A model generated the notes under the pieces. That model saw only the letters and a list, made by a program, of their open reading frames with translations. It did not search any database and was not told the DNA's origin. DNA of 64,000 bases from the NCBI GenBank assembly GCA_964601935.1, contig CAZROP010000001.1:185867-249866 (forward strand). Reading direction: 5' to 3'. This document shows, piece by piece, positions 2,379-49,064 of the stretch. This DNA comes from an uncultured Candidatus Saccharibacteria bacterium. Its GTDB lineage: Bacteria > Patescibacteriota > Minisyncoccia > Phycocordibacterales > UBA1006. Both the position numbers and the translations under genes were made by a program. How positions within the stretch are numbered: the first letter of the stretch is position 1; every line of letters begins with the position of its first letter.

Positions 2379-2722
2379 GTAATTATGGTGATAAAACGAG
2401 TATATAATTCGACCTGTACCAAAGAATTACGAACTAGCCGAGAAGCTGTTCGAACAAGAATCTCGGAAGGTCTTGCGCCATGCCCACAAACGTGGAGATG
2501 ACCGCCCTCTGTCTCTGATTCTTTGAATACCCTGCAAATCTACCATTTTTTTAGAGAAAGACAAGGACTTTGTGATTTAACCAAAGATACGAAATGACAC
2601 CCTTCTGTCACCCTGAATTTATTTCAGGGTTCATAGAGATAGCTGTACAGATGCTGAAATAAATTTATCTTGCCCTGTAGGTACAGCATGACACATCAAA
2701 GTTTGTTTTTATATTTAAACTT
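2379..2722 (-). promoter_or_regulatory. long 5' leader of rplJ-rplL, candidate L10 autoregulatory leader; contains the palindromic repeat element
   Basis: ~340-nt ORF-free region upstream of rplJ with several stem-loops; the L10 leader is a well-known regulatory RNA in bacteria. Confidence 0.3.
2597..2700. repeat. two inverted copies of the CCCTGAAATAAATT...CAGGGTGACAGA palindromic repeat family (locus A)
   Basis: left copy tgtcaccctgaatttatttcaggg, right copy gctgaaataaatttatcttgccctgtaggtacagcatgacaca; related copies at 33757 and 40106. Confidence 0.55.
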
Positions 2723-2995
2723 TTAAAACAACTTCTTCCCGAACAGTGTTCCAATAGCATCCTCGAATGGTTTGTGCAGAGTATTATAAATAATGAGAGC
2801 CAAAACAACCAAAACGGTCAGGGGAAGGATCAGGACTAGGCGCGTTATATTGCTTTTCAGGTCGCCATTTTCCTTTATCCACTTTTCCCATATTGGATAC
2901 AAATAGGCCATAACCCACATTGCAGGCAATACAATAGGTCCTAGTATAATCAGTTTCGTATACTGTACCCATTTAGGAGACGTCGCGGCTGCCAT
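2723..2995 (-). CDS. small integral membrane protein, hypothetical
   Basis: 90 aa with two hydrophobic helices. Confidence 0.4.
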   Translation of the reverse strand: MAAATSPKWVQYTKLIILGPIVLPAMWVMAYLYPIWEKWIKENGDLKSNITRLVLILPLTVLVVLALIIYNTLHKPFEDAIGTLFGKKLF

Positions 2996-6444: not shown

Positions 6445-7464
6445 CTAGCCCCCAATTACGATATCTTCAAGCGACTGAAATGCATTCTGTGCATTTGATA
6501 TTTGCTGCTTCAGACTTGATCGGTATTGATCCAGGAATTCCACCAGAGTGATCCCTTCTACCTCTACCTGAGTGGCAGCATTCGGGCCTACGTAACGCCA
6601 GTGCCAGGGTTCTGCACGGAATCCTGTGATAGCTTCTTTGCCCTCTGGATAACTGTTTACAAAACCAAATTCAGCAGCATTTTTATACAACCACTCTATT
6701 TGCTTGCCAGCTGTTAATGGAACACGCTTTCCATCTTCTTCTGCTGCGAAATCTGCTGATGTTCCCAGATTATGTTCGGACCGCCCTGGCAATGCTACAA
6801 TACGATGAGCATACTCTCCTATACGACGCACCATGACCTGTAGCAAGTAATCCTGCGAGTCTTCACCACGGTAGGATGAGGTTACATACAGGTTAACACC
6901 GTCATCTGCTGCTGCCTGGTACATACGCTTTAGCGCATGATAAGTTTCTGCCTCCAGACATACAGGACCATTAGAAGGTATCGAATTATCTAGTTCAAGG
7001 ACCAAATTGTTGGGTACATATTCACTCGGCAAGACACGTGCTTTATTCACATTATCCAGTCGGAAATCTGCTACATCGCGACTGGTCTGACCTACGGGGC
7101 AGTACAAAAAGGCATACAGCGAATTAATATTTTTCTTGGTCTCAGGTGCGAGCCATGCCTTGCCTGGTCCCTGGTGAACATTCAGAGTATCCCGCGTAAT
7201 TTTATCCCACACCCCAGAAGCATTGAGATCATACCCTCGCGAGCTCAGATAATGTTGAATTATCAGAATCTGCTGACGAGTGAGTTTTGAAGCATCTGAT
7301 GGAAAAGAAAAAGATGAATCCGTAGCTCTCCACGCATCCACCAATGAATAAGGTATATTCAAATATAATCGAGGATCAGTCTCGGTGTTCGTCACAGCAA
7401 AAGATATTCCTGGAACAGCCAATACCAAACAACATACAATAGAACACATCCGACGATACAACAT
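6445..7464 (-). CDS. D-alanyl-D-alanine carboxypeptidase (VanY/M15 family) with peptidoglycan-binding domain
   Basis: 339 aa with a signal peptide; PG-binding-like LTRQQILIIQHYLSSRGYDLNASGVWDKITRDTLNVHQ; M15 motif SEHNLGTSADF. Confidence 0.7.
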   Translation of the reverse strand: MLYRRMCSIVCCLVLAVPGISFAVTNTETDPRLYLNIPYSLVDAWRATDSSFSFPSDASKLTRQQILIIQHYLSSRGYDLNASGVWDKITRDTLNVHQGPGKAWLAPETKKNINSLYAFLYCPVGQTSRDVADFRLDNVNKARVLPSEYVPNNLVLELDNSIPSNGPVCLEAETYHALKRMYQAAADDGVNLYVTSSYRGEDSQDYLLQVMVRRIGEYAHRIVALPGRSEHNLGTSADFAAEEDGKRVPLTAGKQIEWLYKNAAEFGFVNSYPEGKEAITGFRAEPWHWRYVGPNAATQVEVEGITLVEFLDQYRSSLKQQISNAQNAFQSLEDIVIGG

Positions 7465-27754: not shown

Positions 27755-28108
27755 TTATTGATTAGGGTTATCGGTTGTTGTAGTAATCGGGTTTGAAATC
27801 TGCTGCTGTATTAAGGAATTGATATCGATAGGATTACCGTTTTCATCAGTAACACTCGCTCCAGTTGGGAGGAATGACGGCTGCTCGGTAACAGTTTCTG
27901 TACCTACGAGTGTTCGCAAACCCTTCAAACCTGCCAAAAATCCTGCATCTACCAGGCTAATAAAATATGAAAACCCGATAACGCACAGAATAACCAACGC
28001 CGTGAATGCAGCTACTTTACGTGGACGAGGCCAGGTTACATTACGTAATTCTGCATATACCTCGCGGAAAAACGTGAATTTAGGTAGTGCCATAGATAGT
28101 TTTGCCAT
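27755..28108 (-). CDS. secE: preprotein translocase subunit SecE
   Basis: REVYAELRNVTWPRPRKV followed by a single TM; conserved secE-nusG adjacency. Confidence 0.75.
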   Translation of the reverse strand: MAKLSMALPKFTFFREVYAELRNVTWPRPRKVAAFTALVILCVIGFSYFISLVDAGFLAGLKGLRTLVGTETVTEQPSFLPTGASVTDENGNPIDINSLIQQQISNPITTTTDNPNQ

Positions 28109-28376
28109 ATACGCGTTATAATACTATAGATAGCGCATTTTTCAAGTAGTCTCACTATTTTAAACCGACATTTTCAATGTTATACACTTTTTTAAGGGTT
28201 TTCCCCAGGTATATACACAGAAATGTCGTTTATTAGTCTTTTATTACCCCCGTCTATTCAAAATAAAGACACTTTCGCAAGAGAAATAGGTAGTTATGTT
28301 TATTGTATAAGATGGGTAGTTCTCGAAATTTCTATGAACTTATTACGTTTCAACCTGAATGCTACAATAGTAGTCT

Positions 28377-28868
28377 ATGAAAGTTAGAGCATTTATATGT
28401 GCAATTTATAACCAGGAAAGCGAAAATGAGCTCTCTAGGTTTATTCTAAATCTAGAGAAAAATGGATATTCTGTACTAAATACTTGGGATAACAACGTAT
28501 GGGAAGCTCCAAAAGAGTATATTCAAGAGACAGGGGATACGCTGGAAAACAGAATTTTAATTATAAATAGCTTGTCTCTATCTGAAATTAGTAAATTAAA
28601 GCTATTTCTAATGGAACAGGAAGTAGAGTTTACAAAAAATAACAGAAGAACTCTCAATCTCAACCCTGGATACTTGTCTCCGAAAGGTATGTTCTTGATA
28701 ACACATAAAGACAACCCATATCGCAAAAGAGAAGAAATTGCGAATAATCTCTGGCAAGAAAAACAGTATGCCTACAACGGTTCAACATTTGAGATACTTG
28801 ATAATACTTTTTCTGAATACAGGGATAACGAAAGAATTGCTAAATTTACTAAATTATTTGACGAATAG
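28377..28868 (+). CDS. hypothetical protein
   Basis: 163-aa soluble ORF with no confident family assignment. Confidence 0.4.
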   Translation: MKVRAFICAIYNQESENELSRFILNLEKNGYSVLNTWDNNVWEAPKEYIQETGDTLENRILIINSLSLSEISKLKLFLMEQEVEFTKNNRRTLNLNPGYLSPKGMFLITHKDNPYRKREEIANNLWQEKQYAYNGSTFEILDNTFSEYRDNERIAKFTKLFDE

Positions 28869-28953
28869 AGCTCATTACTGCACACTGATATTGCTACATA
28901 GTGAAAAACATCCATAGTTCGGGAGTTATCGTGGAAAACATGGTGCTTAAACT

Positions 28954-29226
28954 CTATCTAATAATCACATCATTGATACTAAACTCGTGGGGATTACTGT
29001 TAATATACTGAACCAATCCATCCATACTGCAACGCGTTTGGAGTACCGTTTGTTCCGCAAAGGTTAAGTGTTGCAGTAATACCACCGTCTGCCCTATAAC
29101 AACCTGACGATTATTCAACGACATGCCTGTGCTATGACCTATATATTCCAAAGCTAGATCCTTTAAAACCTGGTCTCGCGACACAGTTTGTGCAAACATA
29201 TTCACCATTTCACTGATATGCTTCAT
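28954..29226 (-). CDS. hypothetical protein
   Basis: 90-aa ORF tightly packed upstream of dnaN. Confidence 0.35.
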   Translation of the reverse strand: MKHISEMVNMFAQTVSRDQVLKDLALEYIGHSTGMSLNNRQVVIGQTVVLLQHLTFAEQTVLQTRCSMDGLVQYINSNPHEFSINDVIIR

Positions 29227-29247
29227 ATACTATTAGATTTTTTCTTA

Positions 29248-30354
29248 TTATCGGCCTACCGGCATTAATAATGCTCTAAAATAGATATCATCTGGCGAGG
29301 TAACCATGATAGGGCGCATTGGATCTATACAGGAAAATACCACCCTATCCACAGACAGTACGTTCATTATTTTCATAATATTATCAGCATTTACGCGTAT
29401 CATGAGGTTTTCCTCGATATCTCCGACTATCAACGCTCTAAATGATGATTTACCCCGTCCACGGTCGTTATAATCCGTTTCGCAGACACACATACTCTCG
29501 TCTGTATTGGGCTTTAGCATTATTTTAGGGAACTGAGGGTCGGCGAATGGCTGTACTGTACGTAGTGCAGTACGTACCTCGTCACGTGTGGTCTCTATGG
29601 TAATAGGAAATTCTTTGGGAATGATTTGTTCATACTGAGGATACGAACCTGTGATAGTGCGTATTATCAATGTGTAATTTCCTGACTGAAACTGACAACT
29701 GCCTTCTGTCGCCACACAATCGACCTTTCCACTATTTCCTAGGCAATGTAGCACATGAGGCGTGTATTTATTAGGTAACAACACTGTCCCCTCCTCTAGC
29801 TCACAAGGTACTCGAGTCTCAGCCAGGTAAAAACTATCTGTCGCAGCAGCTACTAAAAACCCTTGTTTTATTGACAAAAACACCGATGCAAGCTCCGGTC
29901 GTATATCAGAAACCGCACAGGCGAATGACACCCGTTTGATAACATCAGATAGTAATGTAGACGATCCTGTATACCAAGTATCTCCAACGAGTTCAGCGAA
30001 CTCCTGAACAGTTTCATGGGGATAGGTTTTAATGTCCGCCTCCGAATCCCCTGAAACGACATGTACCACACCTTCTACTATCTCCAATGTCACTTCGCCG
30101 AGGTTTTTGATAGTACTCAGAAACCCTATCAGGACATTCTGATCGATAGCGACACGTCCTGCATCATCAACAGATACAAACGGTATGATGACGCGTCCCG
30201 ATACCCCTAGACCATGCGCCAGCACCTCTACGTGATCTGTGGCAACAGTGAGACACGTGTACGCTAGGATAGGTTGCGCTGGATGGCGTGTTGGTAATTT
30301 TGATACTGATTGTAGCGCATCCAGTAGAGTTTTCCCCTGCAAGGTCAGTTTCAT
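29248..30354 (-). CDS. dnaN: DNA polymerase III beta sliding clamp
   Basis: 368 aa; N-terminus MKLTLQGKTLLDALQSVSKLPTRHPAQPILAYTCLTV matches the DnaN pattern; length and three-domain periodicity fit. Confidence 0.65.
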   Translation of the reverse strand: MKLTLQGKTLLDALQSVSKLPTRHPAQPILAYTCLTVATDHVEVLAHGLGVSGRVIIPFVSVDDAGRVAIDQNVLIGFLSTIKNLGEVTLEIVEGVVHVVSGDSEADIKTYPHETVQEFAELVGDTWYTGSSTLLSDVIKRVSFACAVSDIRPELASVFLSIKQGFLVAAATDSFYLAETRVPCELEEGTVLLPNKYTPHVLHCLGNSGKVDCVATEGSCQFQSGNYTLIIRTITGSYPQYEQIIPKEFPITIETTRDEVRTALRTVQPFADPQFPKIMLKPNTDESMCVCETDYNDRGRGKSSFRALIVGDIEENLMIRVNADNIMKIMNVLSVDRVVFSCIDPMRPIMVTSPDDIYFRALLMPVGR

Positions 30355-33305: not shown

Positions 33306-33756
33306 AATAGTTATTGATAAAGATGGATTGTTAATAATAAAGTATCACATCGAGTGTAGAGAATTATGTCCTATACACTTCGATAGTACGAGTATACATG
33401 TCTATTACTAAGTAACGCAAAACAACTGTGTGGATAAAAGACATATTAATGTGGTAAAACAGGTGGATAGACTGAGTATAGTGTCTTTTATAATGTGCAG
33501 ATACTAGTGCACTAGTGTGGAGAGAGCTAATCCAAAGTTACTAGAAATATATTCAACTAATACTTTGTTGTCTTGGATGCTTTTTGGTTATGTCTTTTAA
33601 TATTCTGTCTTCACAGGTCCCGACCTGGGGTTATAAAAACAAGGAGTATAACGACTATGTTTTTCTATGCAAGGCCCAGGAATTAGAAAGATAGCAGGAC
33701 TTCGTAAGCGTATACCTCCCAGAATAAGCTTAAAGTGATAATATAGTCTCTATAGG

Positions 33757-33782
33757 CCCTCAAATAAATTCAGGGTGACAGA
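33757..33782. repeat. CCCTCAAATAAATTCAGGGTGACAGA repeat copy (locus B)
   Basis: 26/27 identical to the reverse complement of 2605..2629. Confidence 0.55.
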
Positions 33783-33827: not shown

Positions 33828-33857
33828 TAAAACCCCTGCCGTATAGAGAGGGGTTTT
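33828..33857 (-). terminator. bidirectional terminator downstream of pnp
   Basis: hairpin aaaacccctgcc/ggggttttt flanked by A and T runs. Confidence 0.6.
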
Positions 33858-33887
33858 TAGATGAGAGCACGGTACGACAGAGGAACC

Positions 33888-39011: not shown

Positions 39012-39992
39012 ATGCTATACTATAGCCATATTATAGTTATGTCAAGTCATGCTGCTTTGCGCCAATTCTTGGAACATTTAGAAATCGAACGTGGTCGATC
39101 CTCGCTCACTCTGCGTAACTATGAACATTATTTGACCACACTGTTCAATGTGATGAAGATCGAGTCTGTGGCTCAGATCGATGCAGATGTTATTCGCGAG
39201 TTTCGGTTGTGGTTGAATCGTCAGCCAGGCGCACGAGCACGAGGTCAGACAGATTCTCTGATGAAACGACGCACTCAAAATTACTACCTCATCGCTCTGC
39301 GATCATTCCTACGGTATGCGATGAAACGGGGTTGGACGCAGTTTGCTCCTGACAATATCGAACTCGCCCGTGTCGGTGATCGTCACATTGATATGATATC
39401 TGCTGATGAGCTTTCCAGAATAATGTCATCATTTGATACGACTACTCGTTCAGGTGTTCGGGACCGAGCTATACTCGAACTCCTCTACTCGACCGGATTG
39501 CGTGTATCAGAATTGGTGTCACTAAACTGTGACCTGGATCTATCCCGCGATGAACTGTCGATTCGCGGTAAGGGTGACAAGGTGCGACTCGTATTCGTTT
39601 CACCAGATGCTCGCATATGGTTGAAAAAATACCTCGGACTTCGTGCCGATGCACAGGATGCTCTGTTCGTCGATGAGCGTGCCAGCGCCGCAGAGTCATC
39701 GGATCGCGAGGCACGCCTAACGCCTCGATCTGTGGAACGTATTGTCGCCGCCGCCGCGGTACGTGCTGGTATCGGAAAGAAGGTGACCCCACATATCATT
39801 CGTCATTCGTTCGCGACAGGTCTATTGGAAAATGGCGCGGACATTCGTTCGGTGCAGACACTGCTCGGTCATGCGCATATCGGGACAACGCAGATCTACA
39901 CGCATGTCACTGACAAACATCTAAAAGATGTATTCAAAAAATTTCACAAACCGACAGATACCTCGGTTACAGAAAAAACCTCTGACACGTAG
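39012..39992 (+). CDS. xerC: tyrosine site-specific recombinase (XerC/XerD family)
   Basis: 326 aa; C-terminal catalytic box HIIRHSFATGLLENGADIRSVQTLLGHAHIGTTQIYTHV (R..H..Y). Confidence 0.75.
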   Translation: MLYYSHIIVMSSHAALRQFLEHLEIERGRSSLTLRNYEHYLTTLFNVMKIESVAQIDADVIREFRLWLNRQPGARARGQTDSLMKRRTQNYYLIALRSFLRYAMKRGWTQFAPDNIELARVGDRHIDMISADELSRIMSSFDTTTRSGVRDRAILELLYSTGLRVSELVSLNCDLDLSRDELSIRGKGDKVRLVFVSPDARIWLKKYLGLRADAQDALFVDERASAAESSDREARLTPRSVERIVAAAAVRAGIGKKVTPHIIRHSFATGLLENGADIRSVQTLLGHAHIGTTQIYTHVTDKHLKDVFKKFHKPTDTSVTEKTSDT

Positions 39993-40105
39993 TCGGAGGT
40001 TTTTTGTTTCATTATCCCTTCTCTTTCCGTCATTCTGAGTTTATCTTAGAATCCACAAACTCTCACTCCCAGATTAAACTTATGTAATACTGCAACCTCT
40101 CTGGA

Positions 40106-40149
40106 CCCTGAAATGAATTTATCATGCCCTATGGGTACAGGGTGACAGA
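40106..40149. repeat. CCCTGAAATGAATTTATCATGCCCTATGGGTACAGGGTGACAGA repeat copy with expanded loop (locus C)
   Basis: about 80% identical to 2653..2695 over 44 nt and shares both ends with the other copies. Confidence 0.55.
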
Positions 40150-46443: not shown

Positions 46444-49064
46444 AGAAAATGAGGGAAATTAGGTTATATAGTTCAGAGAGCTATAGTTCCTAGATTCCAA
46501 GGGTTGTACTGACTGTTTCATGCGAAACGAGTCGATTTGTTTTTATAATCGACATGTTGTCTCGCGTTACTTGTTACCTGTCTCTTTACCCAGTACTGAC
46601 GTCATGACTCGCCTGTACCAATAAACTCACATTCTCAAAAACCAGCCAGAGATACTATGTCGCGCATAGTGTATCATGCGTGGGGTGTAAAAGCAAAGTT
46701 ATTGACCTTTTTTCTTCCGTCTTCCCAGGCGTAGCGATAGCGGAGATCTGGGATACAGGATTAGAAAAACTCACTGGAGTGTTGTAAGTATGCTGAATCC
46801 TGGATCCCGGGTTGACTATTCATATAGTCGGACCTTGTCCTTCCTTATGAATATGTCCCCCGGGAAGACAGGAAGATTTACGCAAAGCCTTGCGCATTCG
46901 TATAATATGGGTTATTGTGAATTAAATTTCATTAAAATCCACACGGTTATGAGAAAGTTATACATTTTTTTCTGTACCAAATTTGTTAGTTTGACTACGT
47001 GGGCGATGTGCTGGCATTATATTTATTCAGGAGCTGCCCTTCCTGTGAAGAAGGTGGTCAAGACACACTCCTATCACAAAAGGTTAAAGCGTTGGTGGCA
47101 TTGTCGAAAGCTACGATTGCGTATTTGGGTCGACAAAGTGATCTGGGGTAAGGAAGAGGAGATTATACTTGGTGCCGACAGTTCGGTACATCAGGTGCGT
47201 CCTCCAGATGGTTATACTCAAATAAATAAGGATAATTTCCCCCGCCCCGCATTACCTGATTGAAGGACGCTAGTGTTAGAACTAAAAGACCTGATTTTAC
47301 CGAACATATCGATATATTCGATTGTTGCAGTAAGATCAGGTTTTTCTTTTGTTGGATATAAAAATACCCGATAATCTTTATGATTACGGGTGGTTTTATG
47401 ACTAAAGCTAGTTTCTAAAAAAGTGCAGGGTCTTTCCTGGAGGTATGAGGAGAGGACCAGGAGACCCTGCGCGAGTATAGCTTGTTATTCAGTAGTGTAC
47501 TCCGTATAGATAATTATGCAAGGGAGTATTAAAAAACTGCTATGTCCTTTCAGATCAGATATAGCAGTAGTTGGTCCAGAGGGTCCTCCCCGAATTCCCC
47601 TAATCTGTAACTTGTGAGGGAGGCCCTTGTTCCCTCTGGATTTTTTTTGAAAAGTCGGCACCCAGCGCCACAGCGACCCCTGTACCACGTTGTTGTTCTG
47701 GGTCAGGGCACTAGGTGCTCAACTTTTCTATTTGTTCATAGTGTTGAGCCCTACACTACTAGTATTTATTGCAAAGTCAACAGTAACCAGTCATCCTGAT
47801 CATTTTGGAATAATAAAAAACTGCTGTCATCTCGGAGAGAAACAGCAGCTTGTTGCGGCGATCATTCATCATGACCCCCTAATATAACCCCAAAAAACCA
47901 AATGAAAACTTCTTTCGGTGCTGTAACTAAACGCTACGGCACTGAAAGAATGATTTTCTATAAAAAATATGCTCTCTGGAATTTACACCTAGTATATACC
48001 CTCTTGATTCATTGTCAAGAACGCCTGTTCATATTCAGGGTATCTTTGTAAGTATTGTCAAAATAAAAAGTCCCAGAATGGTTACAACGGGCGCTGTGTC
48101 ATCCTCTCTCACGGAGATACAAAAAACCGCTCGCAGATTTTGTACCGAAGGAAAACTGTCCTAGGGGCTAAAAATGGAGCGGCTTCACATGAAACAAATT
48201 TACGTCTTGAGGGTTTCGGTATTAAAGAGAGGTCGACCACTGCTGCCAGTATCGACCTCCCGAAAAACACCTAAAACCCTATTTTTTTCTGTATCATTCG
48301 GTTCGAACGGATTAGCATAATTATATGCTTATAATCCTACATCGTCAATATAATTCAAATAAAAAGGCTGACTCGAAAACATAAAAAGAATTCGGGTCAG
48401 ACTGTGTATGAGAGGATAATCAACGAATGAAATAATAAAAAATCCCCCTTTTGCTGGCCCACTCTACACCCGATTGCGGATTTGTCCAATAGGTATTAAA
48501 AAACGGGAGCCACTGGTGATCTTTGTGGCCCCGTTCAGGGTTGTTGCGCCTCTGGTAGAGTCCGCAACGGGTATATGTGGAGTGAGCTCGTTTTCTTTGA
48601 ATTAGGTCGGGACCTGAATACTGTCCCGACCAGTATATTCAAAAAACAGCAGGTATAGGGTCAATTGAGTAATAGTATAGAGACATGTTCCGGTTTGTCA
48701 ACCCTAGACGGTAATAAAAACCCCTGCAAGGTCACCCATGGGGTAACTACTGCAAGGATCGAGGTTTCGCCTTCTGAAGCTATAAAAGTGTAGTCAGATT
48801 TCCAGTATACTGAAAATATAATGCGTGACTATTGTGGTGGGGTTATAAAAAACCGCTTCATCGGGAGTCTCGGTCGCTAAAACGAGTGATGAAGCGGAGT
48901 AATATCTGGGCGCATGGCATTAGGTGGGGCGCCCAGAACAAAAAACGTATGACGATCTAATAGTGAGGCGTAGCCTACAGGAATTATCGGGCATTGTCAA
49001 GAATTGCAGATGTTAATCGGGTACACATTGTCCTATAACGTCGTATTGTCAAACACCGTGTCTC
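46444..49064. other. ~2.6-kb ORF-poor, stem-loop-dense region (candidate cluster of ncRNAs or a large structured RNA)
   Basis: no ORF over 160 aa; the only ORF (46790..47263) has an implausible W/C/H-rich composition; many perfect 7-11-bp hairpins; + strand terminators at ~47288-47350, 47366-47397, and 47577-47649; minus-strand terminators at ~47815-47850 and 48845-48897. Confidence 0.5.

Follow-up and report, generated by a model that had tools for sequence, protein, structure and literature searches.

The 64,000-nucleotide stretch of uncultured Candidatus Saccharibacteria DNA considered here (contig CAZROP010000001.1 of GenBank assembly GCA_964601935.1, positions 185,867 to 249,866; referred to below as the window; from a Paceibacteria/Nomurabacteria-like genome of the Patescibacteria with ~43% G+C) carries a short palindromic sequence that recurs between its genes, which raises the question of what that repeat is and how it came to lie where it does. 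An earlier note, made from the sequence alone, had picked out four dispersed copies and proposed that they behave either as an element resembling REPs (repetitive extragenic palindromes) or MITEs (transposable elements of miniature size with inverted repeats), or as a shared protein-binding site. Judged by their sequence, we assign the repeats to the superfamily of CGTC-tagged REPs, family CGTC-2. We further favor the reading, to which we give a probability of roughly 0.6, that the CGTC-2 hairpin is non-autonomous and that new copies of it are placed in trans in permissive intergenic DNA. For the annotation of the window the feature is real, belongs to a family already described and is ordinary; what is new is a host from the Patescibacteria, the sharing of the same core by many phyla, a phage carrier and a long variant of the unit.

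Anatomy of the units and their assignment to CGTC-2

All four copies were found at the places that the earlier note had given, with no match in shuffled sequence; its count was one short, a fifth unit (E, below) having been overlooked. The five units lie in three intergenic gaps, where four of them pair into head-to-head (HH, tags outside) dimers, at 2606-2693 and at 40028-40147, and the fifth, at 33753-33780, is a decaying singleton. On the strand opposite to the consensus first drawn for them, they follow a common plan with a basic length of 28 nt: a (T/C)GTC tag is followed by an 8-bp stem of the form A[C/T]NCTGAA and a loop of 5 nt, and the return stem leads into a tail of 3 nt. The individual units, and the inserts that lengthen two of them, are as follows:

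2606-2633, plus strand: unit A, short form; tag TGTC (2606-2609), stem ACCCTGAA (2610-2617), loop TTTAT (2618-2622), return stem TTCAGGGT (2623-2630), tail TCA (2631-2633)
2648-2693, minus strand: unit B, long form, partner type; TGTC-ATGCTG[18-nt insert]AA-TTTAT-TTCAGCAT-CTG
2666-2683, minus strand: insert of unit B, TACCTACAGGGCAAGATA, between stem positions 6 and 7
33753-33780, minus strand: unit C, short form, singleton; TGTC-ACCCTGAA-TTTAT-TTGAGGGC-CTA, two stem mismatches
40028-40055, plus strand: unit E, the overlooked unit; CGTC-ATTCTGAG-TTTAT-CTTAGAAT-CCA
40102-40147, minus strand: unit D, long form; TGTC-ACCCTG[18-nt insert]AA-TTCAT-TTCAGGGT-CCA
40120-40137, minus strand: insert of unit D, TACCCATAGGGCATGATA, between stem positions 6 and 7

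The tag is thus TGTC in units A, B, C and D and CGTC in unit E, and the tail is CCA in D and E, CTG in B, CTA in C and TCA in A; the loop is TTTAT in A, C and E, with B and D representing a variant that has the extra 18-nt insert. The stem, previously given as 7 bp, is 8 bp long (A-CCCTGAA / TTCAGGG-T), and the conserved unpaired 'TGAC(A)' next to it is the reverse complement of the (T/C)GTC tag. The copy at 2648-2693, which had been taken for a degenerate ACCCTG copy with compensatory changes, is instead a unit of the usual partner type, with the stem ATGCTGAA/TTCAGCAT that is commonest among partner units in other phyla. Units A (left) and B (right) form one HH dimer, with a tail-to-tail gap of 14 nt (2634-2647); units E (left) and D (right) form the other, with a spacer of 46 nt (40056-40101). 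No partner of unit C was found within 150 nt.

The 12-mer CAGGGTGACAGA occurs exactly three times in the window (2604-2615, minus strand; 33771-33782 and 40138-40149, plus strand) and the 14-mer TTCAGGGTGACAGA twice, as against no occurrence of either in 100 dinucleotide shuffles. A covariance model (R1), trained on 75 units of other genomes with the window units left out, recovered unit A (36.4 bits, E = 1.1e-6), unit C (26.8 bits, E = 2.6e-4) and unit E (26.9 bits, E = 2.4e-4), and missed the long units B and D with their inserts. Unit E, which has one G·T pair and the canonical CCA tail, is by its sequence a textbook CGTC-2 unit. As single-stranded DNA, unit A folds into a clean hairpin (-7.3 kcal/mol, z = -5.15) and unit D into a three-way junction (-8.4 kcal/mol, z = -2.66, minus strand; -10.2 kcal/mol, z = -3.87, plus strand). 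The fold of unit B is weak and no better than that of shuffled sequence (z = +0.9), and this unit is therefore probably decaying. A short sequence that adjoins unit A (2584-2599, minus strand; TGTCAT-TTCGT-ATCTT; a weak R1 match at 9.4 bits, E = 5) looks like the remnant of another unit, with the tag, the first two stem bases and the tail retained and the rest of the hairpin gone.

The insertion of ~18 nt with a mini-hairpin of its own, which had been ascribed to the loop of two copies, is indeed present in both, but lies between stem positions 6 and 7. The inserts of units B and D are identical at 14 of 18 positions (consensus TACC(T/C)A(C/T)AGGGCA(A/T)GATA). They occupy the same position in two stem types, the ATGCTG-type (B) and the ACCCTG-type (D), which argues either for two insertions at a preferred stem site or for gene conversion between units. 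In unit D, the insert supplies a CCC-ATA-GGG mini-hairpin and its ATGA pairs with the TCAT of the old loop region, such that the predicted three-way junction holds two mini-hairpins. The insert was not found in 119 other loci, nor, together with its flanks, in the JGI metagenomes; it is a secondary, lineage-specific embellishment.

CGTC-tagged REPs were described by Di Nocera, De Gregorio & Rocco (2013, BMC Genomics 14:522, PMC3733652), and our comparison is based on the text of that paper, its supplementary peptides and plasmid sequences. According to the text, such REPs carry at one end of the hairpin an unpaired terminal tetranucleotide, CGTC and often TGTC or CCTC; the loop has 4 nt in family 1 and 5 nt in CGTC-2 to CGTC-4, and the tail has 3 nt with the consensus CCA. 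They are described there as mainly HH dimers, with heterodimers prevailing in CGTC-2 and CGTC-3 and CGTC-2 homodimers reported in Novosphingobium, and as mostly intergenic, between unidirectional or convergent genes, without an associated transposase. The same text lists CGTC REPs from five phyla, names Sulfurovum, sphingomonads and Kosmotoga among the CGTC-2 hosts, and includes Neisseria dRS3 (CGTC-1) and the cores of Rickettsia RPE-4 and RPE-6 in the superfamily.

The window units match these published features in tag, 8-bp stem, 5-nt loop, 3-nt tail, HH dimers, intergenic position and the lack of a linked transposase. The Sulfurovum CGTC-2 peptide RHSELVSGS (SUN_0512, PMC3733652 supplement) corresponds to the translation of CGTCATTCTGAACTTGTTTCAGGATCT, a back-translation that is not unique and that fits tag and stem; the Novosphingobium resinovorum plasmid pSA1 carries a perfect HH homodimer of CGTC-ACCCTGAA-CTTGT-TTCAGGGT-CCA; and the Treponema saccharophilum plasmid pTS2 carries the matching unit CGTCACCCTGAACTTGTTTCAGGGTCTA. 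Because all three match, we consider the window elements to be CGTC-2 REPs, and the earlier suggestion of a REP-like element holds. The stem is 8 bp in all units, with A-T as its first pair in 68 of 75 aligned units. A partial exception is the second pair: units B and E have T-A here, as do 52 of the 75 aligned units, and A, C and D (the ACCCTGAA subtype) have C-G. This subtype would still fall within the 'almost invariably' of the family's description, since the Novosphingobium CGTC/CCA unit also has C-G at its second pair.

Searches for other identities gave no match to Rfam at gathering thresholds, none even at E <= 10 on window positions 2380-2730 and only noise on one further locus (L053), and the sequence strings of the unit had no match in the literature. 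CRISPR repeats, type III toxin-antitoxin repeats, integron attC sites and dif sites were rejected, as the copies are single and dispersed, without spacers and without matching core sites. The delta-proteobacterial LexA box (CTRHAMRYBYGTTCAGS) was rejected for a misfit of register. A structured RNA or kink-turn (AGA...TGA) was likewise rejected, given GA/UGA flanks that vary between copies, the missing Rfam match, and the absence of an orientation bias and of a G·T excess.

Distribution and constraint beyond the window

A wider pattern search of GTDB genomes (pattern CCCTSAAAT-N(3-33)-CAGGGTGACAGA; one genome per GTDB species) dispelled the concern, raised in the earlier note, that only a few copies might exist and none elsewhere. 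It returned at least 121 matches in at least 117 loci, with at least 106 of the matches being the exact 26-nt short form. For uniform base composition, ~17 matches would be expected by chance when all gap lengths are counted, and ~0.5 when a single gap length is. Some 15 phyla, with near-identical sequence, are represented among the matches listed. The hosts among these matches, with lineages as named in the sequence records, include Gastranaerophilales/Vampirovibrio, Treponema, Elusimicrobiota/Endomicrobium, Nitrospirota, Thermodesulfovibrionales, delta-proteobacteria/Thermodesulfobacteriota, Ignavibacteria, Flavobacteriaceae, Bacteroidales, Balneolales, Caldiserica, WOR-3, Stahlbacteria, Atribacterota, Dependentiae, Rickettsiales, Gamma- and Alphaproteobacteria, and a second metagenome-assembled genome of the Patescibacteria with two dimers (L035, L088). 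An assembly artefact is excluded, because the carriers include cultured isolates (Jejuia, Seonamhaeicola and Aliifodinibius) and finished plasmids (from Novosphingobium, Sphingobium, Sphingomonas, Tenacibaculum and Treponema saccharophilum).

The repeat is also carried by a phage. A temperate tailed phage (L121/L122, IMGVR_UViG_3300045988_146177, 30.6 kb, and L120) contains ~20 CGTC-2 units of three stem types, all of them intergenic; it has genes for portal, terminase, capsid and tape measure proteins, for RecT/YqaJ and RusA, and for a CI-like repressor. By contrast, among 2.9 million viral contigs the exact pattern is present in only 3 stretches, and the 30-mer had no match among the INPHARED phages.

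We determined the properties of the family in 806 kb of fetched loci, in which perfect 8-bp hairpins with 4-6-nt loops were collected in both strand readings. GTC precedes 197 of 978 hairpin strand readings, where ~15 would be expected, and ~80 of these 197 are partner units that lie outside the selection made by the search pattern. The tag of the 197 hairpins is mostly TGTC (168) or CGTC (21), the loop has 5 nt in 190, and the tails are mostly CTN, with some CCA; the stem types are ACCCTGAA, ATGCTGAA, ATTCTGAA, ATTCCGAA and ATCCTGAA. Compensatory changes were found at three stem pairs (pair 2: UA 52, CG 18; pair 3: CG 31, GC 25, UA 15; pair 5: UA 58, CG 15), while GAA/TTC and the closing A-T remain constant. 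Since the units had been selected for pairing, only these double changes count as evidence for a hairpin constraint; on that evidence the sequence is constrained as a hairpin.

Dimers across the loci are oriented head-to-head in 59 cases, tail-to-tail in 21 and head-to-tail in 16. They are mostly heterodimers, usually of a ACCCTGAA stem with an AT-type stem, and in many of them the two ends of the spacer are complementary. Although 81% of the DNA is coding, no more than 18 of 244 units were found within long open reading frames (ORFs). The intergenic units fall into unidirectional (92), convergent (46) and divergent (31) gaps, with a modest over-representation of convergent gaps (27% of intergenic units vs 19% of intergenic length). 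No bias was seen with respect to the transcribed strand (42 sense vs 50 antisense; 25:33 for ACCCTGAA units alone), and G·T stem mismatches are not in excess over A·C mismatches (12 vs 20).

Several loci show the units in larger or unusual arrangements. In L006, L011, L016, L074, L113 and ~30 other Gastranaerophilales loci, the 26-mer is part of a conserved ~100-nt repeat, cactttattgcactgggctaaaataggctttgtgagtaggataga[unit]aaattagtgcaaaagagtgcaag, that flanks small cassettes (HipBA, a HigA-like antidote, helix-turn-helix proteins) beside a 179-aa tyrosine recombinase, a layout that resembles an integron or an array of Neisseria intergenic mosaic elements (NIMEs). In delta-proteobacteria and Thermodesulfobacteriota (L053 at 6700-6920, L064, L089 and L116), the HH dimer sits inside a ~170-nt element that is bounded by the inverted repeats GATGGnnTCGTAAAAAGTC / GACTTTTTACGAnnCCATC and whose spacer holds an IHF-like ATCAAnnnnTTA; by its sequence this element looks like a composite MITE built around a REP dimer. 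L093 (~1300-1460) has five head-to-tail units that recur every 30 nt (AGACCCTGAAATGAATTCAGGGTGACAGAT), a tandem array that is rare for an element otherwise found dispersed, and the Treponema copies are nested inside a GCTGA...TTCAGC hairpin.

Acquisition at the window's loci and the question of mobility

The units occupy three of the largest gaps in the window. The A-B dimer has the stop codon of a 90-aa membrane ORF on one side and the conserved region of the rplJ promoter and leader on the other; the rplL-rplJ genes are on the minus strand and are preceded by this ORF and a SpoU-type methyltransferase gene. Unit C lies in the gap between the PNPase gene (pnp) and a 904-aa ORF, downstream of the terminator-like hairpin of pnp (33830-33860) and ~450 nt upstream of the ORF. 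The E-D dimer separates an Xer-type tyrosine recombinase gene (xerC) from the convergent gene of a 471-aa membrane protein and is itself placed between their convergent terminator-like hairpins (39973-40005, plus strand; 40263-40237, minus strand). The units are placed outside the terminators and, at rplJ, upstream of both promoter and leader; their effect on the host genes of the window is probably little or none.

The contigs of four relatives among the Patescibacteria, in which ribosomal protein L10 is 64-76% identical, have a conserved rplJ leader. None of the four has a unit upstream of rplJ or in the ~40 kb fetched around the locus. The region ahead of rplJ measures 190-240 nt in these relatives and can be aligned with the window between ~2545 and the start codon; the corresponding gap in the window is 344 nt, and its extra length is explained by the ~90-nt A-B dimer. 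One contig (L001) ends 112 nt upstream of rplJ, a break that might conceal a presence/absence polymorphism of the units. The two copies that had been placed in the rplJ leader therefore lie upstream of the conserved leader and likely promoter, as the alignment indicates. Given the absence of units at the orthologous locus, sequence comparison identifies the window copies as lineage-specific acquisitions and not as conserved regulatory sites, and the earlier proposal of a shared protein-binding site is set aside in that sense.

Our preferred reading of the family as a non-autonomous element copied in trans draws together the hairpin constraint and tag, the inverted doublets, an intergenic position without strand preference or target-site duplication, the patchy occurrence among relatives and the near-identity across phyla, along with the nested and tandem arrangements and the ~20 units in phage gaps. 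Systems such as GTAG-REPs with their REP-associated tyrosine transposases (RAYTs), and the IS200/IS605 elements, use a Y1/HUH enzyme that reads a hairpin and its 5' tetranucleotide on single-stranded DNA and leaves no duplication. By analogy with these, a CGTC-2 unit would extrude as a hairpin when its DNA becomes single-stranded, and a protein would recognize the folded hairpin together with the unpaired 5' tetranucleotide, cutting and joining it without target duplication. The unit of spread would usually be the tags-outside heterodimer, of one ACCCTGAA-type and one AT(G/T)C(T/C)GAA-type stem, and inserted units would then decay by mutation, as unit C and the weakly folding unit B may illustrate. 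Direct repeats flanking the 59 HH dimers were not above the control distribution, and the lack of target-site duplication fits single-strand transposition of the Y1/HUH type. The element is probably a parasitic mobile sequence.

Several observations weigh against this reading. All-against-all clustering of 2,028 ORFs from the 117 loci gave no gene family that is shared across phyla beside the units; the top clusters are ABC/AAA ATPases, histidine kinases and the Gastranaerophilales toxin-antitoxin and integrase genes. A jackhmmer search with an IS608 TnpA query found no Y1 transposase in the window and loci (~0.9 Mb; best E = 0.013, noise), which is a weak negative, and the genes of the unit-rich phage include no HUH enzyme or transposase. 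The 2013 paper, as far as its text goes, likewise found no mobilizing enzyme (PMC3733652). The lagging-strand bias expected for single-strand transposition was not seen, with ratios of 42:57 and 49:32 by GC skew, a crude proxy, neither being significant. Absence from relatives at 64-76% identity of L10 shows gain or loss and not transposition. The copy count, five in 64 kb with none in ~13 kb of adjoining contigs, refers to these stretches of the genome. The near-identity across phyla could instead mean strong constraint by a universal host factor.

A broader proposition, that CGTC-2 spreads horizontally throughout the bacteria as a single-strand DNA element and needs no linked or dedicated transposase to multiply, seems to us doubtful. 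If it were true, the mobilizer would be a housekeeping enzyme that is widely conserved, such as a nuclease of replication or repair that acts on the hairpins once extruded, or would be delivered in trans by phages. The 26-nt core in small-genome Patescibacteria, Dependentiae and Rickettsiales and the ~20 phage copies would be explained in this way, and the 18-nt insert, as a parasite of the second order, would have the hairpin itself as its target.

Each of the rival explanations that we considered is weaker than that of an element copied in trans. The units might be domesticated sites of chromosomal architecture, comparable to the bacterial interspersed mosaic elements (BIMEs) of E. coli, with dimers that are bound or cleaved by a general DNA-handling protein such as gyrase, IHF/HU or DNA polymerase I and are retained for supercoiling or nucleoid organization. 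The enrichment in convergent gaps, the placement of the E-D dimer exactly between two convergent terminators and the IHF-like ATCAAnnnnTTA in dimer spacers of delta-proteobacteria and Nitrospirota would suit such a role, as would the extreme cross-phylum conservation if the partner were universal. The window dimers, however, have no IHF-like site, units B and C are visibly decaying, five copies per 64 kb is a low number, and the distribution is patchy, with close relatives that lack units at the same locus; differences of 50-fold in family size also rule out a general essential role according to the text of Di Nocera et al. (PMC3733652). We consider this explanation unlikely. We regard it as quite unlikely that the units are targets of site-specific recombination (by a tyrosine recombinase or an IS110-type enzyme) that mark the entry of cassettes or phages, a role that would be compatible with mobility. 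A precedent exists in Neisseria dRS3 (CGTC-1), into which the Nf1 prophage integrates and which is a hotspot of recombination (PMC3898611); the E-D dimer starts 36 nt past the stop of the window's only Xer-like recombinase gene, and the Gastranaerophilales 26-mer repeat borders toxin-antitoxin cassettes beside the 179-aa tyrosine recombinase. But the adjacency to xerC would arise by chance about once in 10 (an estimate from 64 genes and 6 neighbor positions), recombinases beside units recur only in that one type of Gastranaerophilales locus, and the status of a target leaves the multiplication of units unexplained.

Action at the level of RNA, with the transcribed hairpin stabilizing 3' ends, standing in for a terminator, being targeted by an RNase or forming a module of a small RNA, appears very unlikely. 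Most units do lie between unidirectional or convergent genes, as the text of PMC3733652 also reports, and unit B starts 29 nt past the stop of the 90-aa ORF, where there is no canonical terminator and where one relative (L126) has one. These points are outweighed by the even split between sense and antisense orientations, the mismatch counts, which lack the G·T excess of an RNA stem, and the failure of any Rfam family to match at E <= 10; in addition, units C, D and E lie beyond terminator-like hairpins, and the hairpins are not followed by a T-run. Least probable of all, in our judgment, is an outward-facing promoter that drives a neighbor such as rplJ. The end of the tag, (R)TGACA, agrees with a -35 hexamer at 5 of 6 positions, and suitably spaced partners can be found (GTGACA-16-TATCTT from 2611 to 2584, minus strand, toward rplJ; ATGACA-16-TATATT from 2688 to 2715, plus strand). 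Promoter-like sites are nonetheless at the level expected from shuffles (2 vs 1.6), TAnnnT at 16-18 nt from the tag is not enriched among 243 units (3-7 matches, as at other spacings), and in the relatives a conserved promoter region and leader are present although no unit is.

Implications and comparison with known systems

None of the repeats is a regulatory signal of rplJ, pnp or xerC, and it would be a mistake to take them for a motif specific to an operon. CGTC-2 hairpins can also seed spurious small ORFs: in T. saccharophilum pTS2 (L131, 254535-254714), a unit lies inside the annotated coding sequence of a 59-aa 'hypothetical protein'. For the family as a whole, which has been an orphan without a known transposase since 2013, its presence in ~15 phyla, in Patescibacteria and in a phage sharpens the question of propagation. 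The data also make that problem easier to approach, since the small genomes narrow the list of candidate enzymes and cultured, unit-rich hosts (Novosphingobium, Treponema saccharophilum) are at hand.

Three further features of the window drew our attention. The region 2379-2545 (minus strand) is a conserved 5' rplJ leader that the window has in common with relatives L123, L126 and L127. It contains a helix AAGAATC...GAGATTCTT that encloses GACAG(R)GGC...GACCTTCC and, close to the start codon, a GGTCGAAT box. Across the four sequences, compensatory change is seen at five pairs; there is no match to the L10 leader of Rfam, and the alignment suggests that the region may represent a patescibacterial form of the autoregulatory L10 leader. 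Positions 47264-49064 comprise 1.8 kb without an ORF of at least 70 aa in an otherwise tightly packed genome, with fragmentary ORFs only and a best Rfam E of 0.27, and might represent a gene in decay or a large RNA of a kind not yet described. The cumulative GC skew has its minimum at ~28000-30000, with negative skew on the left and positive skew on the right, which may mark a replication origin or a switch in strand composition.

Among known repeats, MITEs (Correia, ERIC) and the Rickettsia elements RPE-4 and RPE-6, which have CGTC-4 and CGTC-1 cores, resemble the window units as small non-coding palindromic repeats found between, and sometimes within, genes. A MITE depends on a DDE transposase and is bounded by terminal inverted repeats, with a duplication of the target site. 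Apart from the hairpin itself, the window units lack terminal inverted repeats, as they lack a target-site duplication, and the name MITE in this strict sense, one of those first offered for them, is not supported; the Rickettsia elements differ in being 100-150 bp long and often in frame within genes.

GTAG REPs, with the BIMEs and REPINs built from them and the RAYT (TnpA-REP), are also comparable. They likewise have a short hairpin at the foot of which a tetranucleotide is left unpaired, have inverted doublets as the likely mobile unit, and are intergenic, without target-site duplication and with occasional IHF sites in the spacer. Their tag, however, is GT[AG]G as opposed to YGTC, the base of the stem is AT-rich only in the units described here, and their sequences are lineage-specific, in contrast to the cross-phylum sharing seen here. 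They also flank a RAYT gene (the REPtron), whereas no RAYT- or Y1-like ORF was found in the window or in ~0.9 Mb of loci with an IS608 TnpA query, and we therefore do not place the units in the GTAG REP/RAYT class. Within the same superfamily are the Neisseria dRS3 repeats and NIME arrays (CGTC-1; dRS3 is CGTC-ATTCCCGC-GAAA-GCGGGAAT-CCA), which share the tag, the A-T start of the stem, the tail and the form of dispersed intergenic hairpins. They differ in a 4-nt loop, another stem and ~700 copies per genome in large arrays, and an interacting enzyme, the Nf1 integrase, is known for them, as opposed to none for CGTC-2 units.

The published CGTC-2 family provides the nearest match. The stem ACCCTGAA/TTCAGGGT is identical in the window units and in the Novosphingobium and Treponema plasmid units, and the likeness extends to the 8-bp stem that starts with A, the 5-nt loop (CTTGT, CTTGA or TTTAT), the tail (CCA or CTN) and the prevalence of HH heterodimers with spacers of 5-110 nt and often complementary spacer ends. 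The differences are the dominant subtype, which here has a TGTC tag preceded by TC, a TTTAT loop and a CTN tail; the 18-nt in-stem insert of two window units, which the 2013 paper does not describe; and the range of hosts, which in the present data spans ~15 phyla, including Patescibacteria, and a phage, as compared with the five phyla previously published.

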